DNA from: Spirochaetia bacterium
GTDB taxonomy: Bacteria; Spirochaetota; Spirochaetia; SZUA-6; Fen-1364
NCBI GenBank assembly: GCA_049515135.1
Contig: JBEKUJ010000017.1
Location: 7,332-71,331 of the forward strand
Direction of reading: 5' to 3'
Length of the DNA: 64,000 nt
A program made the translations under genes and the position numbers. The notes beneath the pieces were generated by a model. It was not told the origin of the DNA. It saw only the letters and a list, made by a program, of their open reading frames with translations, and ran no database searches. Within the stretch, counting starts at the first letter, position 1. Every line of letters begins with the position of its first letter. Of the stretch, positions 1 to 16,480 are shown piece by piece.

Positions 1-261
1 ATCCACGATCCAGACGTACGGATCGACTCCGGGCGCGTACCCCATCTCCTCTGACAGTATCCCGTGCCCGGGAAAGCGCTCGCGAATGATGCCCACAATG
101 CTCTCTTCGCACGTTCTGTCGAGGCGCAGCTTCAGATCGTGCGCCTCGGTTGCATCCACCTGCAGGGCCGACTTGAAGCTGGCGCTGATCAGCTCGCCGG
201 CAGTGGTGGCCGCATCGATGGCGGCGCTGCGAACGGGTGAGACCGTCGCTTCAGCGGCCAC
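1..261 (-). CDS. Inositol monophosphatase (IMPase/SuhB) family protein, N-terminal part; gene continues beyond window start
   Basis: Reverse-strand translation of 1-261 gives ...AAIDAATTAGELISASFKS..DLKLRLDRTCEESIVGIIRERFPGHGILSEEMGYAPGVDPYVWIVDP, which aligns with the SuhB N-terminus (NVDKAAE..IRKSYPQHTIITEESG..VWVIDPLDG). Putative GTG start at 261 overlaps the upstream acetyltransferase stop. Not in the ORF track because it is truncated. Confidence 0.5.
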   Translation of the reverse strand, partial: MAAEATVSPVRSAAIDAATTAGELISASFKSALQVDATEAHDLKLRLDRTCEESIVGIIRERFPGHGILSEEMGYAPGVDPYVWIVD

Positions 262-910
262 CGTACTTCTCCATGAATGCATCCACCGAGCACAGGTCCC
301 TCCAGCGCTCCTCCAGCTGGAGCCGGTCCCAGTTCCACCATTCGCTTCTCAGGATGCACGCGATGACATCCTCGGAAAACCGCTTCCTGACCGGCCGCGC
401 GGGCACGCCCACCACTACCTGATAGGGCTCCACGTCTTTGGTGACCACGGCGGCCGCGCCGATCACGGCCCCCGTGCCGATGCGCACCCCGGGGAGCACG
501 ACCGACGCGTGGCCGATCCACACGTCATGCCCGATCACGCAGGGGTGGGCGCGGCGCCAGTCGAAGAACTCCTGGTCGTCACAGGCGTCCAGCCCGAACT
601 GTCTCCTTCGATACGTCATGTGGTGCTGCGTTACCCGGTCCTGGGGATGATTTCCGGGATTGATGCGCACCCTGTTGGCGATGGAGCAGAATTTCCCGAT
701 CTCGGAATAGTAGATCGACACGTCGCCGTCGTCGTAGGAATAATCGCCGATGATCGATTCCACGATGCGGCTGCCGGGGCCGATCTCCGTCCATGAGCCG
801 ATCCTGCTCTTTTCGATGTGCGCTCCTTCATGGATGAAGGGAGCCTCGGATAGCCGCACCTCGGGGATGCCGCGGAGCGCCGGCGGGCGGATGTCGATCT
901 CATGAAGCAT
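251..910 (-). CDS. Hexapeptide-repeat (left-handed beta-helix) acetyltransferase, phn-operon associated type
   Basis: 219 aa with repeated [LIV]G.... hexapeptide pattern (VIGHDVWIGHASVVLPGVRIGTGAVIGAAAVV), similar to xenobiotic/Vat-type acetyltransferases. Sits immediately after phnM with an 11-nt overlap. Such transferases are a recurrent accessory gene of C-P lyase operons. Confidence 0.7.
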   Translation of the reverse strand: MLHEIDIRPPALRGIPEVRLSEAPFIHEGAHIEKSRIGSWTEIGPGSRIVESIIGDYSYDDGDVSIYYSEIGKFCSIANRVRINPGNHPQDRVTQHHMTYRRRQFGLDACDDQEFFDWRRAHPCVIGHDVWIGHASVVLPGVRIGTGAVIGAAAVVTKDVEPYQVVVGVPARPVRKRFSEDVIACILRSEWWNWDRLQLEERWRDLCSVDAFMEKYGGR

Positions 911-2123
911 GGGAGACCTCCCGGGCCCACAGGTCGCCCATGGCGCTCATTGCGCTGTCATGCATCTCGTAAACCCGGTGTCCTCCGATCCAGGCGCCCA
1001 CCACCGAGGGCATGTCCGAAGCGTCGCTGACCATGATCAGGTCGGCCCGCTTGCCGATCTCCAGGGAGCCCAGCTCCCCCTGTAGGCCGGCGGCTTTTGC
1101 CGGGTTTGCGCTGACCATTCGCACCGCCTCGGGCAGCTGCATGAGCCCTTCCCTGGCAAGACGGAACACCGCATGGAGGAGCGCAGGCGTGTAGTAATCC
1201 GAGCAGAGGATGTCGACGGTCTTTGCGCGGATGGCTTCCAGGGCGCTCAGGTTGTTGGTGGTGGATTTCCCGCGCAGGACGTTGGGGGCGCCCACGGCGA
1301 CGTGCATGCCTCTTTGAGAAGCTGCTCTGGCGGCTGCCATGTCCACCGGAAACTCGCTGATGGTGATTCCGAGCCCGTCCATGCGGGCGACCTTTTCCGG
1401 TGTGTCGTCGTCGTGGGACGCAATGGGCAGGCCCACTCCCCGGGCATGCGCCGCGAGCTTCTTCAAGACAACGCCCACCGTCGGGTTGCGGGCCCGCTCC
1501 TCCCGATTCCTCAGGAGCGCCTGGATCTCCCCGACGGGGGAGTTGTACTTCCGGACATAATAGTTCACCAGGTAGTCCGGGTTCCTGTACTGTCCCTGTC
1601 CGGGAGTGTGGTCCATGAATGACACGAGGTTCACGAGGCGCTCGTCGATCAGGCGGCGAAAAAGCTCATAGTGATGGAACTCCACCATCTCGTAGCGCGC
1701 GTGAATCAGATGCCTGATGACACCCGTGCGCCGAAGGGTGTTCAGCTCATGCACCGTGGGCTCCAGCAGATCCGGATGGAGAGTCCCTTCGCGGCCGTCC
1801 ATGAAGGAGAAGGAATGGAAGATCGTCGTGATGCCATGGCTGACGAGCTGGCTCTCCAGCGAATGGAGCGCAATAGCCAGCGGGAAGATGGCGTGCGGCC
1901 GCGGCTCGATCTCCTGCTCGATCCCATCGTTGTGCAGGTCCACGAAGCCCGGCATCAGAAGCCGGCCCTGGCCATCAACCACCGTCGCGCCCGCCGGGAC
2001 CGAGGCTCGCTCTCCGCTGGCAAGCAGGGAGAATATCCTGCCGTCCCTGACCGCAAGCGAGCCGCGTTCGATCACGGCATTCGGAGTGACAAGGCGCACG
2101 TTCGTGAAGACCGTGTCCGTCAT
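900..2123 (-). CDS. phnM: PhnM, amidohydrolase-family alpha-D-ribose 1-methylphosphonate 5-triphosphate diphosphatase
   Basis: 407 aa metal-dependent amidohydrolase fold (FVDLHND, IASHDDD motifs). Positioned after phnL with an ATGA overlap (ATG 2123 / TGA 2120). Confidence 0.85.
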   Translation of the reverse strand: MTDTVFTNVRLVTPNAVIERGSLAVRDGRIFSLLASGERASVPAGATVVDGQGRLLMPGFVDLHNDGIEQEIEPRPHAIFPLAIALHSLESQLVSHGITTIFHSFSFMDGREGTLHPDLLEPTVHELNTLRRTGVIRHLIHARYEMVEFHHYELFRRLIDERLVNLVSFMDHTPGQGQYRNPDYLVNYYVRKYNSPVGEIQALLRNREERARNPTVGVVLKKLAAHARGVGLPIASHDDDTPEKVARMDGLGITISEFPVDMAAARAASQRGMHVAVGAPNVLRGKSTTNNLSALEAIRAKTVDILCSDYYTPALLHAVFRLAREGLMQLPEAVRMVSANPAKAAGLQGELGSLEIGKRADLIMVSDASDMPSVVGAWIGGHRVYEMHDSAMSAMGDLWAREVSHAS

Positions 2124-2818
2124 GCGGCATCCCCTGCGTGCATGGGAGCCATTTCCAGGATCTGGTCGGACAGACTCCTGAGAAGGGCAATGTCATGGAA
2201 GATTCCGATCATCGCGGTCCCCTCCAGTTTCAGCTCCTGGATGAGGGAGACCGCCTCGCGCGCCGTTGCCGCGTCAAGGGACGCAGTGGGCTCGTCCAGC
2301 AGGAGGAGACGGGGCCGGGCAATGACCGCGTGGATGATGTTGATCCTCTGCTTCTCGCCCCCCGAGAACGTGGACGGGGACAGCTCCCAGAGCGAACGGG
2401 GAATTGCAAGCCGGCTCAGCAGATCACACGCCCGGGAAAGGCTTGCCTCCCGGGGGAAGCCGCGCGCGACCATGCTGTCCGCAATGGTGTCCAGCGCGGA
2501 CACCCGCGGAATCACGGGGAAGAACTGGGAGATGTACCCGATCTCGTGCCGGCGCAGCCGCAGGATGGCGTGCTCGTCCGCGGAAACAATGTCGCGGGTT
2601 TCGGCGGCAGCGTCCGTGTACCAGACCGATCCGGCCGAGGGAAGGTACGTCCGGTAGAGGCACTTCAGCAGGGAGGACTTGCCGGCGCCGCTGGGACCGC
2701 TGATGCCCAGAAACTCACCCTTCGAGAGGCTGAAGCTCACGTCCCGGAACGCATGGATCAGCGTGCCGTCCCGCACGTGCATCAGGAAAGTCTTGGAAAG
2801 CCCCTCGCATCGCATCAT
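2120..2818 (-). CDS. phnL: PhnL, C-P lyase system ABC-type ATPase-like subunit
   Basis: Walker A GPSGAGKSSLLK and Walker B LLLLDEPTASLD. Likely ATG start at 2818 (MMRCEGLSKTF), 27 nt after the phnK stop. The ORF-track N-terminal extension is judged non-coding. Confidence 0.8.
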   Translation of the reverse strand: MMRCEGLSKTFLMHVRDGTLIHAFRDVSFSLSKGEFLGISGPSGAGKSSLLKCLYRTYLPSAGSVWYTDAAAETRDIVSADEHAILRLRRHEIGYISQFFPVIPRVSALDTIADSMVARGFPREASLSRACDLLSRLAIPRSLWELSPSTFSGGEKQRINIIHAVIARPRLLLLDEPTASLDAATAREAVSLIQELKLEGTAMIGIFHDIALLRSLSDQILEMAPMHAGDAA

Positions 2819-2844
2819 GGTCGGCGTCTCACTTTCTTGCGCTC

Positions 2845-3681
2845 CTACAGCGCTGAATGCACGAGCAGCTGGGTATAGGCATGCTGCGGGTCCTCGAGGA
2901 TCTGGTCGGTAAGCCCCTGCTCCACCACGCACCCGTCTTTCATGACGAGCGTGCGGTCGGCAAGGAGCCGGATCACCCCCATGTCGTGGGAGACCACGAT
3001 CATGGAGATCCCCAGCTCGCGCTGCAGCTCGCGGATCAGGTCAAGCACGCGGGCCTGCACGCTTACGTCCAGGCCGGAGGTGACCTCGTCAAGGAGAACG
3101 AGGGGCGGATTGTTCGCCAGGGCTTTTGCAATCTGGATCCTCTGCTGCATCCCCCCGGAAAGAGACCGGGGGAAGCGATCGATGTAGGTCGCGGGAATTT
3201 CCGTCCTGGCAAGCAGTCCTGATGCCCGCTCCCGTATGCGGGCAAAATGGAAGACGTCTGCTTCCAACAGTTTCTCCGCGACGTTGGCGCCGCTTGTGAT
3301 GTCCATACGGAGCCCGTGCATCGGGTTCTGGTACACCATGCCCATCAACCGGCCGCGCAGCCTTCGCTTTTCGCTGCGGGGCAGCCCAAGAACGTTGTCC
3401 CCGCCGTTCTGGCCGTTGAAGGCGATCTCCCCATGGGTGGCGTCCAGGTCGAAATAGATACATTGAACAAGGGTGCTCTTGCCGGACCCGCTTTCACCGA
3501 CGACACCCAGTATCTCCCCTTCCTTGAGGTCGAATCGAATGCCTTCCATCGCGGCTATGGACCCGCACCTGGCGCAGATGTTCGTGGAATGCTCGGGGCC
3601 CGTGAGGTCGCGGCAGGAGCTGCATCCGGGGCCGTAGCGCTTTCCCAGGTCCTGCACGCGGAGGAGAACCTGGTCACCCAT
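2845..3681 (-). CDS. phnK: PhnK, C-P lyase system ABC-type ATPase-like subunit
   Basis: Walker A GESGSGKST, signature LSGGMQQRIQIAKAL, Walker B LVLLDEVTSGLD. Start ATG at 3681 (MGDQVLLRVQDLGKRYG) overlaps the phnJ stop (ATGGGTGA). The ORF-track extension upstream of 3681 is rejected. Confidence 0.85.
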   Translation of the reverse strand: MGDQVLLRVQDLGKRYGPGCSSCRDLTGPEHSTNICARCGSIAAMEGIRFDLKEGEILGVVGESGSGKSTLVQCIYFDLDATHGEIAFNGQNGGDNVLGLPRSEKRRLRGRLMGMVYQNPMHGLRMDITSGANVAEKLLEADVFHFARIRERASGLLARTEIPATYIDRFPRSLSGGMQQRIQIAKALANNPPLVLLDEVTSGLDVSVQARVLDLIRELQRELGISMIVVSHDMGVIRLLADRTLVMKDGCVVEQGLTDQILEDPQHAYTQLLVHSAL

Positions 3682-4570
3682 GGGCAAGCCTCCCCCGCCG
3701 GGGGATTGCCCCCTCGCGCACGAGGTCGCAGAACCCGGAATCGGAGCAGACGCGCGAGGCTTGACCCGTGGTTTCATCATAGATCTCGTCCAGAAAAGTG
3801 CCGCTGGACCCGCAGCGCGCGCAGCACATGCCGAAGAAGTTCTCCACGGTGAACGGCATGTCGTCGAACTCCAGCGGCTGCACGGATGTGTGGGGCGGCA
3901 CAGCATAGACCCGCTTCTCCCGCCCTGCTCCAAGGAGAGTCAGGTGCTCGGCGTCGTGAAGAAGGGGCAGGTCCCACCGGGGCAGGGGCGAAGGAGACAT
4001 GATGTAGCTGTCGTGGACCCGGCAGGGATAGCCGGAAGTCAGGGAGATGGACCCGTTCTGAACGACGTCCTCATAGAGGGACACCCACATGCGGGCGTAG
4101 TCCCCTTCGGAGTGCATCCGCCGGGTCTCGACCTCGCTGGGCTCCACCAGGCGGAGGGGCTCAGGGAGTGGGACCTGGAGCACGGCGATCTGGTCGGATC
4201 TGAGCGGCACCTCGGGGAGACGGTGCCGGGACTGCAGGAGTGTGGCCTCGCGGGAATCGAAGGTCGTGCGCACGCCGGTGGTTGCCACCAGGAGCTTGCG
4301 CAGGTTCACTGCATTCACGCTGCCGTCGCAGCCCTGGTCGATGATTTTCAGCACGTCCTTCGGGCCGATCAGGGACATGGTCACCTGGAGGCCCCCGGTT
4401 CCCCAGCCCCGTGCAATGGGAAGCTCCGGCGAGGCGAACGGCACCTGGTGGCCGGGCAGGGCCACTGCCTTCAGGAGCGCGCGCCGCACCTCCTTCTTCA
4501 CCCCTTCGTCAATGAAGGCGAAGTTGTAGCGAAAGCCCTTCCCCTGGGGCAGAAGCTCTTTCAGCGTCAC
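3674..4570 (-). CDS. phnJ: PhnJ, radical-SAM-type C-P lyase catalytic subunit
   Basis: 298 aa aligning along its full length with E. coli PhnJ (AVAIPGYQVPF, WGTGG, LFGAGREKRIYAVPP). Carries the C-terminal four-Cys cluster CCARCGSSGTF...RVCSDSGFC. GTG start at 4570 overlaps the phnI stop (GTGA). Confidence 0.9.
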   Translation of the reverse strand: MTLKELLPQGKGFRYNFAFIDEGVKKEVRRALLKAVALPGHQVPFASPELPIARGWGTGGLQVTMSLIGPKDVLKIIDQGCDGSVNAVNLRKLLVATTGVRTTFDSREATLLQSRHRLPEVPLRSDQIAVLQVPLPEPLRLVEPSEVETRRMHSEGDYARMWVSLYEDVVQNGSISLTSGYPCRVHDSYIMSPSPLPRWDLPLLHDAEHLTLLGAGREKRVYAVPPHTSVQPLEFDDMPFTVENFFGMCCARCGSSGTFLDEIYDETTGQASRVCSDSGFCDLVREGAIPRRGRLAHG

Positions 4571-5658
4571 TCTTCTGCGCCTCTTTGCGCACGCAGCCGG
4601 TCAAGGTCCGCCTGGAAGGTGACGTAATGGGGGAGCTTGAAGTGGGAGCAGAACCCCGAGGCCTCCACGCCGTCGGTGTGAAGGAGCACGAACTCCTGGT
4701 CCTCTGCGGGCGCGTGAGGGGTCGGCGACCTCATGGTGCGGTCCAGCACCCCGAGGGAGATGGCCTTCACCTCGTTGTGTCCGAAACACGAGCCGTACCC
4801 CAGCGTGAAAGTCGGCTTTTCCTCCCCCTCGGCGCGCTGGAACGATGCGACGATCTCCACCTCGGTCAGTGACACCGAGCCCAGCGTGACTGCTGCGCCT
4901 TTCCTCCATGGGTGAGGGATCTGCACGCTCACCCGGCCCACGCGCAGCTCCCCGACCGTGGGATGGATGCTGCCGTAACCGCGCATGCTGCTGTACGCCA
5001 GCGCCAGCACGCCGCCCGTTTCCGCCCGGGCCAGCATCTGCAGCCTGCCGCTGCGGTCCAGGGGGAAAGTGGCGGACTCCTGCGTGATGTCAGTGGGCTC
5101 GGCGGACGAGGCCGGCGGCACGGGGGGGACCAGCTTCTGGTCGCGAAGCATGTCCACCACTTTGCGGAAGTGCGCGGGCTTCAGGGGGTCCGCAGCGTTG
5201 TCGAGGCCAGCCTCGAACTCACGCACAGCTTCCTGCTGGACCTCCGCGGTCTCTTCCGCCAGAGAGAAATCCAGGATCCGCTGCTCGTAGTCGGATGTGG
5301 AGCCCAGGACTTGCCCCCCCGGGATCGTCTTGAACGCGCTGGAGATTCGCCGCAGGATCCTCATCTCCCCGTTGCGGACCGGAAGGCTGTCCACCAGGCG
5401 GCGCAGCGTGGACCGATACGCACGAAGAAGGAACGACGCCTCAATCGGATCGCCGGATGCCTGTTTGATTGCAAGGGCCGCATGAAACGGAGAGTACAGG
5501 CCCCCCTCGCTCATCACCCTGTCCACCAGCGGGCCCATCTGTTCCATGATCTGATTGACCGAAAGCGGCGCGCTCTGTCCCTGGAGTCTCCGATACCGGT
5601 TGAGCTTCTGGGAGTTTTCGATGGCGGTTATCCCGCCCTGGACTGCAACGTAGCCCAT
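4567..5658 (-). CDS. phnI: PhnI, ribose 1-methylphosphonate 5-triphosphate synthase subunit
   Basis: 363 aa with PhnI-like N-terminus MGYVAVQGGITAIENSQKL and conserved central region. Lies between phnH and phnJ with overlapping stop/start codons. Confidence 0.9.
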   Translation of the reverse strand: MGYVAVQGGITAIENSQKLNRYRRLQGQSAPLSVNQIMEQMGPLVDRVMSEGGLYSPFHAALAIKQASGDPIEASFLLRAYRSTLRRLVDSLPVRNGEMRILRRISSAFKTIPGGQVLGSTSDYEQRILDFSLAEETAEVQQEAVREFEAGLDNAADPLKPAHFRKVVDMLRDQKLVPPVPPASSAEPTDITQESATFPLDRSGRLQMLARAETGGVLALAYSSMRGYGSIHPTVGELRVGRVSVQIPHPWRKGAAVTLGSVSLTEVEIVASFQRAEGEEKPTFTLGYGSCFGHNEVKAISLGVLDRTMRSPTPHAPAEDQEFVLLHTDGVEASGFCSHFKLPHYVTFQADLDRLRAQRGAEE

Positions 5659-6269
5659 CAGGCGGGCTCCGCCGAGCTTGTGCGCGGAATGCCTGCGACT
5701 CTGCCGTCTTTGTCGACAAGGAGGAGGTCGATGCCCATGGGGTAGAACATGTTCGCCTTGGACCGCTCTTCGAGGTAGCGCGGGTCCAGACCGGTAACGG
5801 AAAGAATGGCCGCGTCCTTGACCCCGGGGCCGCTCAACCGAAGCGCGTACCCGGCCCGGCCCGGGTCCCCTTCCTCCGACAGCCGGCCCACGCAGAGCAG
5901 AGCGGTGGCGGAGAACTCTGGAAACTCCGGCGTCCCGCGGTTCAGGCGCGTGAAATCCGCATCGAACCTCTCTCCCTCAAAAAGCACGTAGTCGGCCACG
6001 TCGACGTGTCGGAAGGGAGTGGCTAGGTTCATCGACAGGTAGCTGACCCAGTCGGGCCTCAGGCCGGAGGAACCCACGGAAAAAGAAACTCGATGATCGC
6101 ACATTGTCTTGAGGATGGAGAGCGCGGGCGGGCAAAACCCTGCCGGCGCCGACTCATATGGCCGGAGCGGAAGGATCCTGATGGTCCCGGGCCTGCTCAA
6201 GGAATCAAGAAGAACGCGGAACGTGGCCTGGCTGTCGAACACTTCGTCGAAGGCAGTCTCCCGAACCAT
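5658..6269 (-). CDS. phnH: PhnH, C-P lyase complex subunit
   Basis: Start ATG at 6269 (MVRETAFDEVFDSQATFRVLLDSLSRPG), which matches the PhnH N-terminal consensus. About 204 aa. The upstream extension of the ORF-track ORF is rejected. Confidence 0.8.
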   Translation of the reverse strand: MVRETAFDEVFDSQATFRVLLDSLSRPGTIRILPLRPYESAPAGFCPPALSILKTMCDHRVSFSVGSSGLRPDWVSYLSMNLATPFRHVDVADYVLFEGERFDADFTRLNRGTPEFPEFSATALLCVGRLSEEGDPGRAGYALRLSGPGVKDAAILSVTGLDPRYLEERSKANMFYPMGIDLLLVDKDGRVAGIPRTSSAEPA

Positions 6270-6280
6270 CTTCGCGCCTC

Positions 6281-6718
6281 CTACCGCACTTCGAAGCTGA
6301 CACGGGTTGTGGCCGCAGCCCTGCTTTCCGCTTCCCATCGACTCCTGATCCGTCTTTCCTCGGCTTCCAGCAGCGGGGCGAGCTGCGCGGCCATGGCGTG
6401 CCCGCCGCCGATTACGGCATCCAGCAGGGCGCTGCACAGCGCCCGGTCTTCTCCCGAACCCAGGACGCAGCCGTACCCCGGCAGGCCGCCCACGTCCACT
6501 TCACATTCCGTAACGTACGCCTCTCCGAGCAGGAACTGGATGTTCTCCAGAGGGTCGACCTGCCTCACCATGACCATGCCCGGAGAGGGGGACTTCAGGA
6601 CTCTGACGGGTAGCCGGTTCACGATGACCTGGGCAATCTCACGCACCGCGTCAAGCTCACCCTCGGCGGCAATCTCTGAATGGTCCATCATGACGGGACG
6701 ATAAAACCAGAGTTGCAT
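6281..6718 (-). CDS. phnG: PhnG, C-P lyase complex subunit
   Basis: About 140 aa, alignable to E. coli PhnG (…RMGGTGERFFAGDATLTRAAV… vs …QVDPLENIQFLLGEAYVTECEV…). Real start may be the ATG at 6691 or 6688 (MMDHSE) rather than 6718. No clear RBS for any candidate. Confidence 0.7.
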   Translation of the reverse strand: MQLWFYRPVMMDHSEIAAEGELDAVREIAQVIVNRLPVRVLKSPSPGMVMVRQVDPLENIQFLLGEAYVTECEVDVGGLPGYGCVLGSGEDRALCSALLDAVIGGGHAMAAQLAPLLEAEERRIRSRWEAESRAAATTRVSFEVR

Positions 6719-6750
6719 TAGTTTTCGATTAGGGAGGTGTTAAAAATCTG

Positions 6751-7881
6751 TTATTTCCCGGCCAAAGTCCAGGACGTGCAGTCTTTCACCGCATCGACAA
6801 GGGATCTCATCGTCGCCGGGGTGACGTCTCCGATGGTCCCGATGCGGAATGTGCGTGCGAGCGAGACCTTGCCGGGATAGATGACAAAACCCCGTGACTT
6901 CAGCCCTGCATAGAATGCCGGAAACGAATACCCCGGATCTTCCGGCTCCAGGAGCGAGGTGATGATGGGAGACTGAAGGCTCTCATCGAGAAGGCTTTGA
7001 AACCCCAGCTGACTCATGCCCTGCACGAGCACGAAATGGTTCGCGCGATACCGGGCGTTTCGGGCCGCCACGCCGCCCTCGTTGTCCAGCTCAAGGAGCG
7101 CCTGGGCGAATGCCCTCACCACGTGAGTGGGAGAGGTGTACCTCCACTTGCCGTTCTCCTTCTCCATCGTGCGCCACTGATCGTACAGGTCCAGGGAGAG
7201 GGAACGCGCCCTGCCTTCGCACGCCTCGAGGGTCTTTCTGCGGGCAACGACGAAGCCGAACCCGGGCACACCCTGGATGCATTTGTTGGCGCTGCTTACC
7301 AGGAAATCCACTCCCAGCTCGCCGATGTCCATGGGAATGCCGCCGAAGCTGCTCATCGCATCGACAATGAAGCAGCGGCCGCTCTGGCGAACAATAGCCG
7401 CGATGTCGTCCAGGGGATTCAGGATGCCGGTGGTGGTCTCACAGTGCACCAGGGCGACATGGGTGATGGAGGGATCGGCGCTGAGCATTGTCCGCAGCTG
7501 TTCCGGGTCGGGCCACGCTGTTTCCACGCTCCGCGCCACCGTATGTGCAATCCGCAGCCTCTGGGCAATCTGCGCCATCCGCTCGCCGTAGGCGCCGTTG
7601 GCCAGTATCAGGACCTTTCCGTCGGCCGGCACCGCGGTGCCGAGCACAGCCTCGACGCAGAATGTGCCAGATCCCTGCATCAGCACGCCCGTGTAGCTCT
7701 CCGGGAAACCGACAGTGGCAATCTCCACAAGCCGGCGCCGAATGTCCTGCACGATCTCGTTGTATTCAGCGTCCCACGTGCACCAGTCACGCAGCATGAC
7801 CTCTTTGACCGTCGCGGTCGTGCTCAAAGGCCCGGGGGTGAGGAGCACATACGGGTTCCCGGGCAGCTCACGCGCGCTCAT
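6751..7881 (-). CDS. phnW: 2-aminoethylphosphonate:pyruvate aminotransferase (PhnW)
   Basis: 376 aa class-V aminotransferase with the PhnW-type N-terminus [32 protein letters not shown] and PLP-lysine region [15 protein letters not shown]. Overlaps the phnX stop by 14 nt. Confidence 0.85.
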
Positions 7882-8728
7882 GCGACTTCTCCCGGGCAGG
7901 CTGCTCGCCCTTGATGATGCGCTCCTCGATCCTGGCCAGGACCTCCCGGCAGCTTGCCACGCTTTCCGTCACGTAGTGGGCGCCCGTTGCGCGAAGGCGC
8001 TTCTCAGCCTCCTGGATGCGCGCGACGCGCTCCTCAGCGCTCAACTGCTCTGCGTCGGTCCTGGAAAGCCCGACCTCGTTGCCGGAGAGCGTGACGCCGA
8101 CCGTCCACATGCCGGCGTTGAGACCTTCCGCGACGTCCGCCTGCGTGTCACCGATCTTCACCATTCGTCGGGGAGGAAACACCTGGAGCTTGATCGCGTT
8201 GAGAAAGCACATCCACGGGTAGGGCCGGCCGGCGGTGACATCCGAAGGACAGACCACGGCATCCGCGGTGAATCCCTGCCGGGCGGCTTCCGCGGTGAGG
8301 ATGTCCATGAGGGGACGCAGGTACCCTGTTGTGGAGCCGATCTGGATGCCCCAGCAACGAAGCTCGTCAACCAGCTCTCTGGCTCCCGGAACCAGCTCCG
8401 AATGCCGCCGTACAGCCGCCATGAGGCGGGGCTCAAGCTCTTCGTACAGGGAGTCCACGTCCTGGGGCCCGGGATCAGCTCCGCAGGCATCCCTCCAGAG
8501 GCTGCTGATGCCGGGATCGGCCAGGAGACTGCGGATGTGCTCCCGCTTCTCCAGGCCCATGGGTCCGCGCGCCTGCGCGATCGTGAGCGGCACCCCTCGG
8601 CGTGCGAAGGTCTCCACAATCGAGACAGCTGGCGCGAAGCACCCGAAATCCACGACCGTGCCCGCCCAGTCGAAGATGACCGCCGATATTCCGCCATCGT
8701 CGTTACTGCCGCCGTTCTGTTTCCGCAT
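7868..8728 (-). CDS. phnX: Phosphonoacetaldehyde hydrolase (phosphonatase, PhnX), HAD superfamily
   Basis: HAD motif I in [14 protein letters not shown], matching PhnX (AVILDWAGTTVDFGSFAP). C-terminal [17 protein letters not shown] also matches. The ORF-track start at 8764 is TTG. The internal ATG at 8728 gives an N-terminus of E. coli-like length, but the start is uncertain. Confidence 0.8.
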
Positions 8729-8789
8729 AACCCGCAGAAAGCATTCCGACAGAGTGTTAGGCAACGGTGAAGCCAGCGTGAATTTTCTG

Positions 8790-10076
8790 TTAGCTTGCGC
8801 CGGTGAGGATGCCTTCCGCCGCGCGTATTCCGCTTGCCCAGGCCGCGGTGATCCCGCGGCTTGTGCCGGCGCCGTCTCCGATCATCCAGATGCCCGGACG
8901 GGCCTGGAAGCTTTCATCGATGAATCGAGGCCTGTTCCCGTACAGCTTGATCTCGGGATAGTACATGATGGTCGAGGGATGGAGCACGCCCGGGATGATC
9001 GTGTCCAGGAGCTTCATGGAGCGCCATATCGCGCGCAGGATCTTGGAAGGCATGGCAAGAGCAATGTCCCCCGGAGTGCAGGCGGAAAGAGTGGGGGCAA
9101 AATCGTACAGGTCCTCGTTGAAGCTCTCCGCCTTTGAGCGCTTGCCCAGCCGGAAGTCCCCTACGCGCTGCACCAGGGGCTGACCACCGCCCATGAGCAT
9201 GGCTTGGTGGCCCAGCATCTCCGCAAACTCCTGGCCGCTGGCCAGGGGCTCCGTGAAACGAACGGTCTTCAGGAGCGCAAAGTTAACAAGGCCCGTTGCC
9301 TCTCCGCGCTCCGAGAAGGCATGACCGTTCACGCTGAAATACGCGCGGCCGTCCGCGGTCTCATACTTTTCCTTGACCACGAACGCCCTGCCGCTGTTCG
9401 TGCAGAACGTGCGCACCTTCTGAGGAAAGTGGAACTTCGGATCGTAGTAGTCCTGGACAATCGGGTAGTTCTGCTCGCGCGCCTCCAGACGCAGTCCGAT
9501 ATCGACCACATTGTCGACGTACGGGACCTCCAGCCGGTCCATCAGCTTCTGCAGGAAGGAGAACCCCTTCCGGCCGGGCGCAACCACGAGACTTCCAAAG
9601 CCGATTTCGCGGCGGTCCGTGAGAAGCACGCGGTCCGCCGCTCGAACGTCGAGCGCGGTTTCCCCCAGGGAGAAGACCGCCCCTGCCCGCCCCAGCTGCT
9701 CCCTCATGCCGTGGGCAAGGGCAATCCCGCCGTCCGTGCCGAGATGGCTCTGGCGCACCTCCAGCAGCTCGACGCCCAGCTTCTGGGCCCTGTTCGCATA
9801 GATGCCGAGATTGCTCTTCGAGAGGATCCGGGGCTGGAGCCGGGCGGTGACCGAACCAAGGTAGCGCTCGGCGGCATGCCGGTCCCAGTATTCAAGGGGG
9901 AACCCGATGGGGAAAGTGAAGTTCATCTTGCAGTCGTTGCACATGCCGCCGGTGCTGAGGGAGGACTTGTCGATGAGCAGAACGGTCCCAGAGGGCCTTG
10001 CCTCCAGGAAGGAGAACGCGGCGCCGAGGCCTGCCGGCCCCGTTCCAATGATCACAAGGTCGAAGCGCTCTTTCAT
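8790..10076 (-). CDS. NAD(P)/FAD-dependent oxidoreductase (COG2509 / HI0933-like family)
   Basis: N-terminal dinucleotide fold DLVIIGTGPAGLGAAF and C-terminal GIWMIGDGAGTSRGITAAWASG. ATGA overlap with the upstream gene, and 25 nt before phnX. Confidence 0.65.
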   Translation of the reverse strand: MKERFDLVIIGTGPAGLGAAFSFLEARPSGTVLLIDKSSLSTGGMCNDCKMNFTFPIGFPLEYWDRHAAERYLGSVTARLQPRILSKSNLGIYANRAQKLGVELLEVRQSHLGTDGGIALAHGMREQLGRAGAVFSLGETALDVRAADRVLLTDRREIGFGSLVVAPGRKGFSFLQKLMDRLEVPYVDNVVDIGLRLEAREQNYPIVQDYYDPKFHFPQKVRTFCTNSGRAFVVKEKYETADGRAYFSVNGHAFSERGEATGLVNFALLKTVRFTEPLASGQEFAEMLGHQAMLMGGGQPLVQRVGDFRLGKRSKAESFNEDLYDFAPTLSACTPGDIALAMPSKILRAIWRSMKLLDTIIPGVLHPSTIMYYPEIKLYGNRPRFIDESFQARPGIWMIGDGAGTSRGITAAWASGIRAAEGILTGAS

Positions 10077-10945
10077 ACAGGGACCGCGAACCAGCTGTCC
10101 ATCGCGTCGATGAGAGCCGGGGTCGTGGGCAGGGCAAAGCGGGCGCCGTTGGCAGTCACCTCCACCGTGTTTCCCATGCGAGCGACCGATTGGATCCGGG
10201 CCCGGGCCATGAACAGGCTGTCCACGCCATACGAGAGCTCTGACTGCGGGGGATCACGCAGAGAGATAAGCTCGTAGGGAGTCACGATCATCATGTGGCA
10301 GCGCGCAATCTTTCCGTGCCGTCCGTAGGACTGGACAGAAAATCTAAAATCCCGCGGGGCCGACTCATCCAGAGTGGAATAGGGATAGTTGAGAAGAAAG
10401 TTCCATTTGAACGGAATTGTCGTCACCCTGGCTCGGCGGCAGGGAACCTCGAACCCGGGACCGGCAAGCGTCCTTCTCAAGCCTGCCAGGACCGGCTCCA
10501 GCACGCGCCGACAGATGGTGTTGTAACGGATGGTCAGGCGCTGGTCATGCGAAAGGAAACTGAGCCTCCCATAGAGAAGAATGTGCACGTCTTCGATTGC
10601 AGAGAGCTTGTCGAGAGCGATGCATACCTTCACGCCCGGCTGGGGCTTTTCCGCCCACAGACCGACTGCGATGTCTCCGACTGCCAGGACTTGCAGAGGG
10701 GTTATCACCCTGCGGTTCCCCCGGGCCGTGGCGCGCACGCACGAAGGAATGATCAGCGTATGCCCAAGTTCCTTCACGCCGCACGTGTCCTGAAGAGATT
10801 CAAAAGCGCCCGCCGGAAGGTCCCCGGGTTTCTTCGGAACAGACGGGTGACCGGCGTAGCGGTCGCGAAAATAGAATCCGCCGCCCAGCTCCGTATATGG
10901 CGCTTCCCAGGTTTCCGCCGGGTCCTGCGCCCACGTCATTTTCAT
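10073..10945 (-). CDS. Hypothetical protein (about 290 aa), unrecognised family, embedded in the phn operon
   Basis: Start ATG 10945 (MKMTWAQDP) forms an ATGA overlap with the gluconolactonase-like gene stop. Its own stop overlaps the FAD oxidoreductase start. No motif recognised. Confidence 0.45.
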   Translation of the reverse strand: MKMTWAQDPAETWEAPYTELGGGFYFRDRYAGHPSVPKKPGDLPAGAFESLQDTCGVKELGHTLIIPSCVRATARGNRRVITPLQVLAVGDIAVGLWAEKPQPGVKVCIALDKLSAIEDVHILLYGRLSFLSHDQRLTIRYNTICRRVLEPVLAGLRRTLAGPGFEVPCRRARVTTIPFKWNFLLNYPYSTLDESAPRDFRFSVQSYGRHGKIARCHMMIVTPYELISLRDPPQSELSYGVDSLFMARARIQSVARMGNTVEVTANGARFALPTTPALIDAMDSWFAVPV

Positions 10946-11856
10946 GGCTCCTGCGCGCCGCGCGCGTTCACGTACATGGCGTACAGCGACGAATGGCCGG
11001 CGATGAAGAGCCTGTTCCGCCGCGGTCCGCCGAACGTCAGGTTCGCCACGGTCTCTGGAACCAGGATCTTTCCGAGGAGATCTCCCTGTGACGAATAGCA
11101 CAGGACGCCGTCCGCGCAGCTTATCCAGGCATTCCCGCCGGTATCTGTTCGAAAGCCGTCCGGCACACCAGGGCTGATGTCCGCAAAGACTTCTCCCCCG
11201 GAAAGTCTGCCGTTGGACACCTGGAACCTGCGCACATGATGGGGACCGCCCTCCGTGTGAGTGGCGCCCGAGTCGGCGACATACAGCAGGCGTTGATCCG
11301 GCGAAAATGCCAGCCCATTTGGCTTGTCGAAATCGTCCGCTGCAATCGTCACGCTGCCTGTTGCAGGATCCGCACGGTAGACGTTGTTGCCGTCCTGTTC
11401 CGAGTCGGCCTTCCCTCCCTCATAGTCGGAAAGGATGCCGTACGGCGGATCGGTGAACCACACCGCGCCGTCCCGGGATACCACCACATCGTTGGGTGAG
11501 TTGAGCCGCCTGCCCTCGTAGCGGTCAGCGATTGTGGTGATGCTCCCGTCCAGCTCCGTGCGGGTCACGCTCCGGCTGCCATGCTCGCAGCTCACAAGCC
11601 GCCCTGTCGTGTCGCGTGTGTTTCCATTTGCAAAGCGCGAGGGGAAGCGGAACACCGTGACGGGCCCTCCGTCCACCCATCGGAGAATTCTGTCGTTCGG
11701 AATATCGCTGAACAACAGGTACTGGCCGTCAGCGAACCAGACCGGCCCTTCAGCCCAGAGGGCACCGGTGAACAGCCTTTCCATTCTTGCGTTCGGCAGG
11801 GTGAGGTCGCGAAAACGCCTGTCGTAGATTTCCCAGTCAACCATGTTTCCCCTCAT
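10942..11856 (-). CDS. SMP-30/gluconolactonase/LRE-family protein (lactonase-like beta-propeller)
   Basis: 304 aa; motifs EGPVWFADGQYLLFSDIPNDRILRW, NSPNDVVVSRDGAVWFTDPPYG, PNGLAFSPDQRLLYVADS. First gene of the long minus-strand operon. Confidence 0.75.
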   Translation of the reverse strand: MRGNMVDWEIYDRRFRDLTLPNARMERLFTGALWAEGPVWFADGQYLLFSDIPNDRILRWVDGGPVTVFRFPSRFANGNTRDTTGRLVSCEHGSRSVTRTELDGSITTIADRYEGRRLNSPNDVVVSRDGAVWFTDPPYGILSDYEGGKADSEQDGNNVYRADPATGSVTIAADDFDKPNGLAFSPDQRLLYVADSGATHTEGGPHHVRRFQVSNGRLSGGEVFADISPGVPDGFRTDTGGNAWISCADGVLCYSSQGDLLGKILVPETVANLTFGGPRRNRLFIAGHSSLYAMYVNARGAQEP

Positions 11857-11915: not shown

Positions 11916-12497
11916 ATGGAAATGTCTGATCTCGTTTCGAAGTGCCGCAGCTACCGGAGGTTCGACGCCGGCTTTGCCGTGGATGCTGCAACGCTGAGGG
12001 ACCTTGTGTCCCTAGCCAGACGGGTGCCCTCGGCGGCCAATCGGCAGCCCCTGAAATACGTCCTGTCCTGCTCTCCGGAGATGAACCTGCGGATCTTCGA
12101 AACGCTTGCGTGGGCGGCCTATCTCAAGGACTGGCCGGGGCCGGGTCCCCGGGAGCGCCCGACCGCCTATATCGTGGTCCTCCAGGACACAGACATCTCT
12201 CCGTCTGCCGAAATCGATGTCGGCATTGCGGCGCAGACCATTCTCCTGGCCGCGACCGCCCGCGGGCTTGGAGGGTGCATGTTCGGGGCCATCAAGAGAT
12301 ACCAGCTGGCGGAAAGGCTCAGGCTTCCGCCGCATCTGTCAATCGCGCTGGTCATCGCCATAGGAAAGCCCGTGGAGAAGGTGGTCCTGGAGGACATGCC
12401 GGCCGGCGGCTCCATCAAATACTACCGCGACCCGGACGGCACGCATCACGTGCCCAAGCGCGCGGAAGAAGAGCTGATCCAGGCCGTCTACGATTGA
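11916..12497 (+). CDS. Nitroreductase-family protein
   Basis: 193 aa; nitroreductase fold motifs RRSYRRF, AANRQP, GLGGCMFGA. Confidence 0.7.
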   Translation: MEMSDLVSKCRSYRRFDAGFAVDAATLRDLVSLARRVPSAANRQPLKYVLSCSPEMNLRIFETLAWAAYLKDWPGPGPRERPTAYIVVLQDTDISPSAEIDVGIAAQTILLAATARGLGGCMFGAIKRYQLAERLRLPPHLSIALVIAIGKPVEKVVLEDMPAGGSIKYYRDPDGTHHVPKRAEEELIQAVYD

Positions 12498-12500
12498 CGC

Positions 12501-14213
12501 CTACTTTGTCGCCTGTTTCGGCTGGTCTTTGGATACCTGGATCTGGAAGAGCTTCTGCGTGCCGTCCTCCGCGGTCACAAAAAACCTTATGATGTCTTTC
12601 TGCCCGGGATCCACGTTCACCGGGACTGTGGCGCTCTGCGATCGTGGAGCGTCTCCCTGATCTGATGTGGATACTCGGGCAAACGGGCTTGCCGCGGCGG
12701 CAGTGAGCTGCACGCCGGTGGCATCAGCCGGGAGACGCAGCGAGTACGTATCCACCTTGACTGAGAAAGCCGGAGTCAGCACACCGGCGGAGGCAGTAAG
12801 GGACGCGAGGTCCGCCGTTCGGTCTGGCGCCGCCCTGTGCAGAAGCAAGGTATAGCGCAATGTCTCTCCGTTCTGCGCGGTGGTTATGATATTGAGGCCT
12901 TTCAGCTCCGGCTCCGGGAACTCTACCTGGACGCCTGTGGCATCCCCGGGATACACGCGGACGGAGGGCGGAGGAGAGGCATTGGGGCCCGCCGCCTGGG
13001 CGGTCTCCAGGCTGATGGCGGCGTTCTTGTCCTGCGGTATTGCGCGGACGGTCAAGCGGGTGAGGGAATACGGGACCTCCGCGGTGTAGGCAAGGGTGTC
13101 GGGTTTGAATGGCGGCGTCAGCGGGGCGTCCACGACCACGAGGTCGGAGAGCAGGTTGTCATTGTTCGCCTCCCGCCGGAGGATCTCCAGGTTGTATCGC
13201 TGCGTCGTGCCGTCCTGCGCAGTCACCGTCAGCACCAGGGGGAGCCTTCCCCCGGAGGGAAAGTCCACCCGCACATTGCCAGCGCTTGCACCCCGTGCAA
13301 GCGGAATGGGCCCTTTGGTTGAGTTGGGGGTTGTCATGGTGACGGAGGCATAGGGGCTCTGCGCCTGCGCGTTCAGCACCACCTCTTTCACCTCGAATGA
13401 CACCGAGGCGGAGTACGCGAACTTGGTGGGCGAAAAGGGCTGGGTGAACACCGCATCAGGTATATAGAGGACGCCCAGGAGCGCGTCGCGGTCCGGCGGG
13501 CTGCGTTTCACGACGAAAGTGTAGCGGGACCTGGTGGTCCCGTCCTCAGCCAGCACGGAGATGGGAAACGTGGTTTGCTGACCGGAAGAGAAATCGACAT
13601 CAGCAACAGCCAGGTGACCCGGGGTGGATGTGCCTCCGATTGTAATGCCCTGGGGGTTGGCGCTCTGCGCGAGGGCGGCCACGCTCAGGGTCTTGGTCTC
13701 GAACGGGACCTGAATGGTGTACTGGTCCACGATGGGGCTGAACGCAGGCTGGAGCACCGAGCGCGCCGGAAGGGTGACCTGCGCCAGGCGCGCGTTCGTG
13801 TCCGCTTCCCGCACCACCACCCGGTAGAGCCACGGCTCTTTCTCACCCGGGATCTCGATGGAGTAGAGAACAGGGGAAGTGAAGTCATTCGCCGTGATCC
13901 CGTTGGTCTGCACGACCCTCTGGTCCCCGTTCACCACGGCAATGACCGCATTCGTGTTGAGCTTCACGGAGGCTATGAGCTTTCTGATGTCGACCCCGTG
14001 AGGCACGACGACGATGATGAGCTCCGGCTCTCCCTGCGCTATGATCCGTCCTGCCGTATCCTTGGGAAGGCCAGGGTTCGCCGAGCCCATGAACGTCAAC
14101 GAATCAATGGGGCCTGTGCCGTGTCCAGTCACACCCATGGTAGCGCAGGCGCTCATGCCAAGGGCAAGGACCGCCACCATGACCGCGCAGAATGACGCAG
14201 CCCTCAACTTCAT
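12501..14213 (-). CDS. Secreted lipoprotein with tandem cadherin-like beta-sandwich repeats
   Basis: Signal peptide plus lipobox LALGMSAC. At least five repeats of the L(T/S)P.FSP....Y(T/S) pattern (LQPAFSPIVDQYT, FTQPFSPTKFAYS, LTPPFKPDTLAYT, LTPAFSVKVDTYS). Strong RBS AGGGGGAG upstream of ATG 14213. Confidence 0.65.
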   Translation of the reverse strand: MKLRAASFCAVMVAVLALGMSACATMGVTGHGTGPIDSLTFMGSANPGLPKDTAGRIIAQGEPELIIVVVPHGVDIRKLIASVKLNTNAVIAVVNGDQRVVQTNGITANDFTSPVLYSIEIPGEKEPWLYRVVVREADTNARLAQVTLPARSVLQPAFSPIVDQYTIQVPFETKTLSVAALAQSANPQGITIGGTSTPGHLAVADVDFSSGQQTTFPISVLAEDGTTRSRYTFVVKRSPPDRDALLGVLYIPDAVFTQPFSPTKFAYSASVSFEVKEVVLNAQAQSPYASVTMTTPNSTKGPIPLARGASAGNVRVDFPSGGRLPLVLTVTAQDGTTQRYNLEILRREANNDNLLSDLVVVDAPLTPPFKPDTLAYTAEVPYSLTRLTVRAIPQDKNAAISLETAQAAGPNASPPPSVRVYPGDATGVQVEFPEPELKGLNIITTAQNGETLRYTLLLHRAAPDRTADLASLTASAGVLTPAFSVKVDTYSLRLPADATGVQLTAAAASPFARVSTSDQGDAPRSQSATVPVNVDPGQKDIIRFFVTAEDGTQKLFQIQVSKDQPKQATK

Positions 14214-14287
14214 TTTTCTGGCTCCCCCTTTGGTTGGGGCCCATCATACCCCAAGCAGGACGGAAGCGCCAGACGCGTGAGACGCCG

Positions 14288-15544: not shown

Positions 15545-15551
15545 ACCCAGA

Positions 15552-16433
15552 TCACTTCCTCCTTTCCGAATACCTGCGAACCACGTCCTTGAACGCATCA
15601 AGCTCCTTCTCCAGCACGCCGTAGCCGTGCTCTGGACCGGGAAAGTTGCCCGAATGCACGTCACTGATGTAGCTGGTGAACGCCTCCGTGATGACCTGCG
15701 CCAGGTTGGCGTATTTCTTCACGAACTTGGGCGTGAAGGCATCAAAGTACCCCAGCATGTCGCCGTTGATGAGGAGCTGTCCATCCGTATGCTTCCCGGC
15801 GCCAATGCCGTACACGGGGATGTCCAGGAGCTCCGTGATGGCCTTGCCGAGCTCGGGAGGCACTGCCTCCAGGAGCAGGGCAAACGCCCCGGCGTCCTGG
15901 ATTGCCAGGGCATCCTGAATCAGCTCTTCCGCGCTGGCCGCCGTCCGCCCCTGCGCCTTGAAGCCTCCCAGCTGCCCGCTGCTCTGGGGGGTCAAGCCGA
16001 TATGCCCGATGACAAGGATCCCCGCATCGACGATTCCCCTGATCTTGTCGATGATCCGCCGTCCTCCCTCGAGCTTGATTGCGTCCATGCCGGCTTCCTT
16101 CAGGAAGCGACCCGCATTCACGATAGCGTCATAGGGGCTTGTCTGGTAGGACATGAAGGGCATGTCCCCCACGACGAACGTGCCCGGAGCGCCCCGGCGG
16201 ACGGCCTTGCAGTGGATGATGCATTCATCCATGGTCACCGGTATGGTGCCGTCATAGCCGTACACCACCATCCCCAGGGAGTCGCCCACGAGGATCATGT
16301 CGATCCCCGCAGTTTCAGCGAAATAGGCAATGGGGTAATCGTACGCCGTGACCCAGGTGAGCTTGACGCCGTCCTTCTTCATTTTCAGGAACTCGAATCG
16401 ACCCTTCTTGATCTTTTTCTCGGCTTTTTCCAT
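15552..16433 (-). CDS. panB: 3-methyl-2-oxobutanoate hydroxymethyltransferase (PanB family; PEP mutase/isocitrate lyase superfamily)
   Basis: Full-length similarity to E. coli PanB (VTAYDY, ILVGDSLGMVV.GYDGT.PVT.DE, GHIGLTPQS, IGAG...DGQ). ATG 16433 is preceded by GGGGGAGAG. Confidence 0.75.
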   Translation of the reverse strand: MEKAEKKIKKGRFEFLKMKKDGVKLTWVTAYDYPIAYFAETAGIDMILVGDSLGMVVYGYDGTIPVTMDECIIHCKAVRRGAPGTFVVGDMPFMSYQTSPYDAIVNAGRFLKEAGMDAIKLEGGRRIIDKIRGIVDAGILVIGHIGLTPQSSGQLGGFKAQGRTAASAEELIQDALAIQDAGAFALLLEAVPPELGKAITELLDIPVYGIGAGKHTDGQLLINGDMLGYFDAFTPKFVKKYANLAQVITEAFTSYISDVHSGNFPGPEHGYGVLEKELDAFKDVVRRYSERRK

Positions 16434-16460
16434 GTCTCTCCCCCTTGGCAGGCACGACAT

Positions 16461-16480
16461 CATTCCATATAATGGAATAG
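16461..16480. promoter_or_regulatory. Perfect inverted repeat ATTCCAT-ata-ATGGAAT containing TATAAT; candidate IclR operator overlapping a -10 element in the divergent intergenic region
   Basis: Seen directly at 16462-16478 between the divergent panB-like gene (start 16433) and the IclR regulator (start about 16567). Confidence 0.3.

Follow-up and report, generated by a model that had tools for sequence, protein, structure and literature searches.

A phosphonate-utilisation locus of a Spirochaetia bacterium with adjoining phosphonatase and C-P lyase genes and a candidate phosphatase-2H phosphoesterase back-end

In Escherichia coli, the carbon-phosphorus (C-P) lyase is encoded by phnCDEFGHIJKLMNOP. 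PhnP opens the product of PhnJ, 5-phosphoribosyl 1,2-cyclic phosphate, to ribose 1,5-bisphosphate, from which PhnN forms phosphoribosyl pyrophosphate (PRPP) (PMC10574752), and PhnO acetylates aminoalkylphosphonates (PMC3463581). For 16 operons that lack phnP, a protein of the 2H superfamily termed 'rcsF' or DUF1045 was proposed as the replacement, as stated in the part of PMC10574752 that cites Podzelinska 2009 and in PMC3266647. The DUF1045 gene usually flanks phnN in alpha- and beta-proteobacteria (PMC3266647). PhnPP, a cyclic phosphate dihydrolase of the PHP family (NF041661), is known from Eggerthella lenta and Clostridioides difficile. The phosphonatase loci of Salmonella, Enterobacter and Pseudomonas hold phnWX together with phnRSTUV or LysR regulators, and those of Salmonella and Enterobacter belong to the Pho regulon (PMC3266647). 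Here we analysed a stretch of 64,000 nucleotides (nt) from a Spirochaetia bacterium (contig JBEKUJ010000017.1), called the window in the following. On its minus strand, phnX and phnW adjoin the lyase genes phnGHIJKLM, which are followed by the genes of a hexapeptide-repeat acetyltransferase and of a phosphatase of the inositol monophosphatase (IMPase) family (Table 1).

With the E. coli operon the locus has in common a phnCDE-type ABC transporter, phnGHIJKLM in the same order, an accessory acetyltransferase gene and a presumed control by phosphate starvation. It differs in that the transporter genes lie downstream and not upstream, that phnXW are adjacent, and that homologues of PhnF, PhnN, PhnP and PhnO are missing. 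Its acetyltransferases are a TIGR03308 hexapeptide-repeat protein and an unrelated GNAT protein, and its PhnK has a four-cysteine insertion. With PhnPP the locus would share the net reaction without PhnN and the same place in clusters lacking PhnP and PhnN (7 Firmicutes-type loci), but a PHP-domain homologue is not present and the steps are proposed to be split between two other folds, a 2H phosphoesterase and the IMPase. The DUF1045/'RcsF' genes likewise encode a 2H-superfamily protein that is proposed to open the cyclic phosphate (Podzelinska 2009, as given in that part of PMC10574752; PMC3266647), whereas the protein here is LigT-like (PF13563, PF02834), has no phnN nearby and has the IMPase as its partner. 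The phosphonatase loci share PhnW and PhnX with the window. In contrast to them, there is no dedicated transporter or regulator for 2-aminoethylphosphonate (AEP), and phnXW lie beside the lyase genes, presumably sharing PhnDCE, an arrangement that recurs in a Geopsychrobacteraceae locus (L044) and has a precedent (PMC9381506). We propose, with a probability of about 0.68, that this is a complete locus in which phnXW and the lyase are parallel routes, with a PhnDCE transporter past the window edge, the IMPase and the 2H protein as the back-end of the lyase, and several Pho-type promoters.

The end of the cluster was found on L001 (JGI Ga0427938_0000562, 74,417 bp), which was retrieved by a look-up with the acetyltransferase and which, over its first 10,910 bases, matches the window positions 10910-1 with 100% identity. 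L001 adds 7,194 bases past the window start, so that about 71 kb of the genome were examined. The genes past the window start are in the order IMPase, 2H, phnD, phnC, phnE, a second phnE, membrane protein, GNAT and a convergent second PhnD. The full IMPase gene (276 aa; L001 10650-11480) matches PF00459 with 166 bits and is overlapped by 4 nt by the gene of a 2H/LigT-like phosphoesterase of 186 aa. The gap between 2H and phnD is 156 nt, or 129 nt if an upstream ATG with a good ribosome-binding site is used. PhnD matches PF12974, PhnC matches TIGR02315 (335 bits vs 266) and the first PhnE matches TIGR01097 (220 bits vs 217). The original prediction had described a unit with no transporter. Since phnDCEE follows immediately beyond the window start, this absence is an artefact of the edge, and phnDCEE in this place is what the prediction had itself named as evidence against it. 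The region covers the 5' two-thirds of a largely conventional, complete phosphonate-utilisation locus, which is interrupted by the window edge. At the far end (L001 15821-17827), a 132-aa four-helix membrane protein of no family and a GNAT protein of 179 aa are encoded, and then the convergent second PhnD-like protein. The GNAT protein showed no similarity to E. coli PhnO.

The genes were assigned by hidden Markov model scans (Pfam, NCBIfam/TIGRFAM) against the cut-offs of the models. Both the run of 14 co-directional minus-strand genes from 11856 to the window start and all 14 family assignments made beforehand were upheld when each open reading frame was searched. A spacing of 35 nt or less had been claimed for the whole run; this holds for most junctions, which span from a 14-nt overlap to a 32-nt gap, but not for the 61 nt between the flavin adenine dinucleotide (FAD)-dependent protein gene and phnX, nor for phnW/phnG. 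The start of phnG is the ATGATG at 6691, which is kept in 10 loci, whereas the ATG at 6718 of the longest open reading frame is missing in 5 of them; with the start at 6691 the phnW/phnG spacer is about 59 nt. A scan with PhnJ over one genome per GTDB species gave 80 loci, and the 22 proteins of the extended cluster were mapped onto the related loci. The closest ones by PhnJ (81-93% identity) are uncultured Spirochaetota metagenome-assembled genomes with record names of the peat, fen or bog type.

All seven core genes of the lyase are contiguous in the order G-H-I-J-K-L-M. In the translation of phnJ, the C-terminus reads MCCARCGSS...RVCSDSGFC, which corresponds to CxxC-x21-C-x5-C, the pattern of the Fe-S cluster and the thiyl radical. 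This spacing agrees with that of C241, C244, C266 and C272 in E. coli. PhnK has an insertion of about 25 residues with CxxC...CxxC (GCSSCRDLTGPEHSTNICARCG; window ~3550-3627, minus strand) between the first beta-strand and the Walker A region. Spirochaetota, Clostridia and Desulfobacterota loci share this insertion, Bacteroidota loci have it without the cysteines, and E. coli lacks it. In the metagenome gene calls phnK is shortened, with the called start falling after the insertion.

The series phnGHIJKLM-acetyltransferase-IMPase-2H was present in 12 Spirochaetota loci (L004-L014, L029), with the identity of the IMPase and the 2H protein going down to 41-44%. The metal-binding motifs DPLDGT and WDFAA of the IMPase are intact. 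The protein scored below the equivalog cut-offs of SuhB, HisN and CysQ, and therefore no characterised specificity can be assigned. In the Pfam scan (E up to 0.01), the 2H protein matched PF13563 and PF02834 only and gave no match to DUF1045. The 2H superfamily is marked by two HxT/S motifs on a duplicated alpha+beta fold; here the motifs are HVTL (residue 43) and HLTL (residue 130), and H43, T45, H130 and T132 do not vary among 35 homologues. The subfamily is small (~100 clusters at 90% identity), and members with 30-38% identity are still within phn clusters. In L088 the gene order is phnM, acetyltransferase, phnL, phnDCEE, a PhnF-like regulator, IMPase and 2H, the last two overlapping by 4 nt. 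In L085, L086 and L087 the 2H gene directly follows phnDCEE, and a protein of 554 aa in which a PHP domain is fused to an IMPase is encoded beside the acetyltransferase and phnM. The best NCBIfam match of the PHP domain was NF041661 (PhnPP), named 'phosphoribosyl 1,2-cyclic phosphate 1,2-diphosphodiesterase', with an E value of 2e-82 over the full model, though with a score under the equivalog cut-off. Two side observations were made in the fusion-bearing clusters. A 214-aa protein of no family always follows the 2H gene (L085 8660-9304, L086 1081-1725, L087 5540-6184), and the flanks of the L085 cluster (163-4016 and 13180-16636) hold genes for an alkaline phosphatase, an OmpR-type response regulator, a CHAD-domain protein, a PFK-family protein (PF00365) and a polyphosphate kinase, so that these surroundings look like a phosphate-economy island.

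Across 83 loci the back-ends were mutually exclusive, with either PhnN, PhnPP or the IMPase-2H pair. PhnN was found in 22 loci, mostly of Bacteroidota, and PhnPP alone in 7 loci (Clostridia, Peptococcaceae, Sporolactobacillus). The IMPase-2H pair was found in 13 Spirochaetota loci and in L088. An IMPase gene also follows phnM in L045 and L062, one Desulfobacteraceae and one Bacillota locus. The original prediction that the lyase products may be processed by non-canonical enzymes agrees with these data, and such a role would suit the IMPase and the 2H protein just past the edge.

The IMPase and the 2H protein could also be unrelated housekeeping proteins, such as a SuhB-like phosphatase and an RNA 2',3'-cyclic phosphodiesterase, the cyclic phosphate being handled by unlinked or non-specific enzymes. 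The best solved relatives of the IMPase are indeed SuhB and IMPase (E 3e-37), the 2H protein is annotated merely as '2'-5' RNA ligase family', and neither of the two reaches an NCBIfam equivalog cut-off. Such genes would not be expected to stay with phn genes down to 30% identity and through four gene orders, to be distributed complementarily to PhnN and PhnPP, to be translationally coupled by 4-11-nt overlaps and, in L085-L087, to provide an IMPase fused to a PhnPP-like domain. We consider this explanation quite improbable.

In the AlphaFold model of a 70%-identical homologue of the 2H protein (pLDDT 95), the predicted fold was closest in the PDB to the Arabidopsis ADP-ribose 1'',2''-cyclic phosphate phosphodiesterase (CPDase; 1jh6/1fsi), with a TM score of 0.70, ahead of YjcG and LigT. 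The PDB sequence search with the 2H protein was uninformative. CPDase opens a ribose 1,2-cyclic phosphate, a group that the lyase product has too, and the CPDases of Arabidopsis and yeast (1fsi, 1jh6) share the two HxT/S motifs with the 2H protein. They differ from it by a sequence identity of only ~15% and by their role as eukaryotic enzymes for a tRNA-splicing by-product. The 2H protein as a substitute for PhnP is an old idea; the LigT-like type with an IMPase partner differs from the precedent. In the literature collection that was searched, no paper was found that names both 'inositol monophosphatase' and 'C-P lyase'.

This raises the question whether the 2H protein replaces PhnP by itself, giving ribose 1,5-bisphosphate that is used by an unlinked kinase or isomerase, while the IMPase acts elsewhere, for instance on phosphorylated by-products or phosphonate-ribose intermediates. 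The precedent in the part of PMC10574752 mentioned above and the modelled fold, closest to an enzyme yielding ribose 1''-phosphate, are in line with this. So are L045 and L062, where the IMPase gene follows phnM and no 2H gene is seen in the examined stretch, which in L062 ends with the contig ~270 nt past the IMPase match. On the other hand, PhnN was found in no Spirochaetota locus, the two genes are adjacent and overlapping wherever both are unfused, and the fusion with the PhnPP-like domain ties the IMPase to the processing of the cyclic phosphate. An action of the 2H protein without the IMPase is unlikely.

PhnN, PhnP, PhnO and PhnF were searched by tblastn with the E. coli proteins in the window and L001 (~71 kb), and none was found, apart from a match to one GntR helix-turn-helix. 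Within these ~71 kb the predicted lack of phnN, phnP and phnF is thus borne out. The helix-turn-helix at 52957-53097 was rejected as PhnF. It is 40 kb away and part of a sugar regulator (window 52891-53994, plus strand) that joins a GntR-type helix-turn-helix to a sugar-binding domain of the LacI/PurR type and is encoded beside sugar ABC permease genes. The small and medium open reading frames of the window were also rejected as PhnN, PhnP or PhnF, as they encode a methyltransferase, RpiB, a methylglyoxal synthase, an SDR protein, ABC transporter components, a prenyltransferase and the sugar regulator. In the Spirochaetota loci the E. coli PhnN and PhnP probes gave no match, and the PhnN probe matched 22 other loci. 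When the PhnPP-like domain of L085 was the tblastn query, 7 other loci were matched, but nothing in the window, L001 or the Spirochaetota loci.

The physical juxtaposition of phnXW and phnGHIJKLM is real. Both PhnX and PhnW scored above their equivalog cut-offs, and the HAD nucleophile motif DWAGT is visible in the PhnX translation. The start of phnX is the called ATG at 8728, which is kept in L005 and L006. The TTG at 8764 was rejected, as it falls within a conserved non-coding repeat array. On the same strand and adjacent to the lyase block, phnXW are found in the window, L005, L090 and L093, and with 1-4 kb of other genes in between in L008, L013 and L029. In L006, L092 and L094 phnX is present without phnW, in L004, L095 and L097 both genes are absent, and in L009 and L010 phnXW are divergently transcribed. 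In L044, phnW-phnX lies downstream of phnM. The juxtaposition is modular and has precedent, since substrate-specific hydrolase genes within C-P lyase operons have already been noted (PMC9381506), contrary to the statement that the two routes are separate loci in characterised systems. The suggested channelling of AEP-derived intermediates into the lyase is unsupported. The phnXW pair is an addition that varies, as close relatives lack both genes, have phnX alone, or carry them in inverted or displaced form. The two routes would run in parallel, and nothing suggests an exchange of intermediates. Among very close relatives (L004, L006, L092, L094, L095, L097; FAD protein identity 84-93%), phnX with phnW, phnX only or neither gene occur as a polymorphism, and phnX lacking an adjacent phnW raises the question of the source of phosphonoacetaldehyde. 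In L005 (5843-6699), the match to phnX is split between two reading frames, suggesting a frameshift or a misassembly.

Upstream of phnX, four pentamers with an 11-bp period were found in the 61-nt spacer. The array overlaps the stop codon of the FAD gene and ends 27 nt before the ATG of phnX. It is kept upstream of phnX in L005 and L006, and a weaker form is seen in L008, L009, L010 and L012. A similar conserved block of ~40 nt before phnG overlaps the stop codon of phnW and is present in 10 loci with the consensus A(T/C)AAC-N6-TTAAC-N6-CTAAT-N6-CTAAT, the columns AAC, ATT.TTAAC and CTAA being invariant. It is kept whatever gene is upstream, be it phnW, phnX, the FAD gene, a glycerophosphodiester phosphodiesterase gene or a divergent phnX. 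In L009 and L010 the block sits in the divergent region, which is the only possible place for a phnG promoter. Arrays were also observed before phnD (L001 12048-12085; L010, L012, L014, L029). Comparable arrays are few in 218 kb of related loci and lie mostly just upstream of phnX or phnD. A Shine-Dalgarno sequence is missing at phnX, phnG and the SMP-30/gluconolactonase-like (SGL) gene but is present at most other genes of the cluster. The glycerophosphodiester phosphodiesterase-like gene, recognised by its motif (HRGY...PENT), lies directly upstream of phnG in L008 (7051-7812), L013 (4818-5648) and L029 (7006-7770), perhaps as a further gene for phosphate scavenging that was recruited to this site.

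Direct repeats with an 11-bp period are a hallmark of the binding of OmpR/PhoB-family regulators, and the core of the arrays resembles the PhoP repeat TT(A/T/C)ACA of Bacillus subtilis. Three Pho-type promoters, at phnX, phnG and phnD, are inferred from these sequences, and read-through between the units may occur too. For this Spirochaetota lineage, the arrays provide a first Pho-box candidate. They might instead bind another regulator, for instance a phosphonate-specific one, or act as RNA-level or translation elements, a possible though doubtful alternative. The cluster has no regulator gene and the window none of the OmpR type, the pentamer consensus is loose, and the distance of only 25-27 nt between the end of the phnX or phnG array and the start codon is uncommon for a classical promoter. 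Binding by a Pho-type regulator is favoured by the period and the PhoP-like core just mentioned, by the position of most comparable arrays in relatives just upstream of phnX or phnD, and by L085, where a response regulator gene and an alkaline phosphatase gene lie beside the phn genes. An RNA element is not supported by the Rfam scan of L001, which gave nothing credible.

The original prediction had placed all 14 genes in one transcript. In its full form this would be a single polycistron whose promoter lies ahead of the SGL gene (11856), with phosphonatase and lyase mechanistically coupled and AEP-derived or acetylated intermediates feeding the lyase. The genes are co-directional with most junctions overlapping or separated by 32 nt or less, no terminator-like site above chance is found inside the cluster, and read-through from the upstream genes is possible. 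Against this stand the operator-like conserved blocks before phnX and phnG and the variation of phnXW (absent, reduced, divergent, separated or displaced) while the lyase block is constant. The FAD, SGL and 290-aa protein genes are unlinked to phn genes outside close relatives, and N-acetylation ahead of the lyase is the canonical chemistry of E. coli PhnO and no rewiring (PMC3463581). With the arrays, the missing Shine-Dalgarno sequences at phnX and phnG and the divergent block of L009 and L010, a single 14-gene transcript is unlikely, and the coupled polycistron as a whole is very improbable.

The acetyltransferase gene directly follows phnM with an 11-nt overlap. A TIGR03308 gene follows phnM in dozens of loci of Spirochaetota, Bacteroidota, Clostridia and Sporolactobacillus. 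TIGR03308 (phosphonate metabolism hexapeptide-repeat transferase) is a family whose definition rests on occurrence in C-P lyase operons. As the protein scores above its cut-off, it is a known accessory of such operons and not the unusual one that had been supposed. In L007 only fragments of the acetyltransferase were found in a 382-nt gap between phnM and IMPase, likely a pseudogene.

In the parallel-route locus that we propose, the order would be phnX-phnW, phnGHIJKLM-acetyltransferase-IMPase-2H and phnD-C-E-E-membrane protein-GNAT. Under phosphate limitation PhnDCE would import phosphonates, one transporter and one phosphate-starvation control being common to both routes. The three or more promoters would have arrays bound by an OmpR/PhoB-type regulator that is encoded elsewhere. 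PhnW and PhnX would convert AEP to alanine, acetaldehyde and inorganic phosphate (Pi), and the C-P lyase would handle alkyl- and other phosphonates. The 2H protein may then open 5-phosphoribosyl 1,2-cyclic phosphate to ribose 1,5- or 2,5-bisphosphate, and the IMPase may take off the 1- or 2-phosphate to yield ribose 5-phosphate and Pi. The two proteins would thus be a two-enzyme equivalent of PhnPP and would replace PhnP and PhnN. The acetyltransferase, and perhaps also the terminal GNAT protein, would probably N-acetylate aminoalkylphosphonates as PhnO does, which is speculative and the weakest part of the proposal.

Several points weigh against this proposal. The structural comparison was made with the model of a homologue and not with the 2H protein of the contig itself. 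PhnPP is reported (Ghodge et al. 2013, JACS) to carry out both hydrolyses by itself, to ribose 5-phosphate and Pi, which makes the role of the fused IMPase unclear. In L085-L087 a PhnPP-like domain and a 2H protein occur together, so that the latter does not simply stand in for PhnPP and may act on a further or another substrate. The searches covered ~71 kb, and phnN, phnP or PhnPP could lie elsewhere in the genome; the E. coli tblastn probes could also overlook very remote homologues. For the promoters, the consensus scans of the cluster and its extension for promoters and terminators gave counts at chance level, with no sigma-70-like -10/-35 pair, and the window, as mentioned, has no OmpR-type or PhoB-like regulator. 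The phnX array was the sole match in 64 kb with 0.00 expected in shuffles, but the pattern was derived from the phnX site itself, so that this figure is not independent. The wider claim, that the 2H protein and the IMPase are an undescribed third back-end beside PhnP with PhnN and PhnPP, that the IMPase partner is more widespread, and that the arrays are a new Pho box, (C/T)T(A/C/T)A(C/T) with an 11-bp period and very short or no leaders, is tentative and, taken jointly, somewhat short of an even chance.

The functional locus begins at phnX and not at the SGL gene, which is probably outside the phn system. The SGL gene adjoins the phn cluster only in the close relatives L006, L091, L094 and L097. 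Between the SGL and FAD genes, the 290-aa protein is encoded only in close Spirochaetota relatives (59-75% identity), and no Pfam, NCBIfam or PDB sequence match was found for it. The FAD protein is widely conserved: in a FAD-based scan of metagenome contigs, its homologues with 61-67% identity were found in ~65 loci without phn neighbours, and L101 and L103 carry their phn genes on the strand opposite to the FAD gene. From the phn-free loci and the strand flip it follows that the SGL, 290-aa and FAD genes are lineage-specific neighbours and not members of the phosphonate unit, in which they had been counted. The FAD protein as a phosphonate-pathway oxidase that replaces or feeds PhnW was rejected because of the same ~65 homologues and the orientation flips. 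A divergent nitroreductase gene (11916-12497) borders the cluster, and just past it (12501-14213, minus strand) lies the gene of a protein of 570 aa that contains four cadherin-like beta-sandwich repeats (PF12733).

Table 1. Features of the minus-strand cluster in the window
Feature	Position	Strand	Match or remark
SMP-30/gluconolactonase-like (SGL) gene	10942..11856	-	PF08450, E 1.3e-47
290-aa protein, no family	10073..10945	-	start per gene call; 4-nt overlap with SGL stop
FAD-dependent protein, COG2509-like	8790..10076	-	weak PF07992 and PF21688; weak PDB 3nlc match
Pho-box-like array before phnX	8756..8793	-	four pentamers, 11-bp period: CTAAC-N6-TTCAC-N6-TTCAC-N6-CTAAC
phnX, phosphonoacetaldehyde hydrolase	7868..8728	-	TIGR01422, 327.8 bits vs cut-off 220
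phnW, 2-aminoethylphosphonate:pyruvate transaminase	6751..7881	-	TIGR02326, 566 bits vs 400.8; NF010006, 567.5 bits
Conserved non-coding block before phnG, putative promoter/operator	6716..6756	-	ATAAC-N6-TTAAC-N6-CTAAT-N6-CTAAT, 11-bp period
phnG	6281..6691	-	PF06754, 74.5 bits vs 32.4; TIGR03293, 85.6, just below 89 cut-off
phnH	5658..6269	-	TIGR03292, 128 bits vs 91.5; start per gene call
phnI	4567..5658	-	PF05861, E 1e-134
phnJ, radical-SAM C-P bond-cleaving subunit	3674..4570	-	PF06007, E 1.5e-126
phnK, start at MGDQVLL	2845..3681	-	best match TIGR02323, 242 bits, below 303 cut-off
phnL	2120..2815	-	TIGR02324, 262.5 bits vs 256.3
phnM	900..2123	-	NF011990, 417 bits vs 233; TIGR02318, 387 bits
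Hexapeptide-repeat acetyltransferase	251..910	-	TIGR03308, 256 bits vs cut-off 201.65
IMPase-family phosphatase, first 87 of 276 codons	1..261	-	PF00459; rest past window

In conclusion, a transporter-less, rewired hybrid pathway is not upheld, and the locus is instead a complete one for the scavenging of phosphonates. What remains of interest is how the cyclic ribose phosphate of PhnJ is recycled in the many organisms without PhnP and PhnN, for which, to our knowledge, an experimental answer exists only for PhnPP. The IMPase-2H pair and the PhnPP-IMPase fusions are enzyme candidates for this step and an annotation marker for the C-P lyase potential of anaerobic peat and sediment bacteria, in whose habitats the action of C-P lyase on methylphosphonate releases methane. 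The PhnPP-IMPase fusions hint at the IMPase partner as a wider, overlooked component of the pathway.

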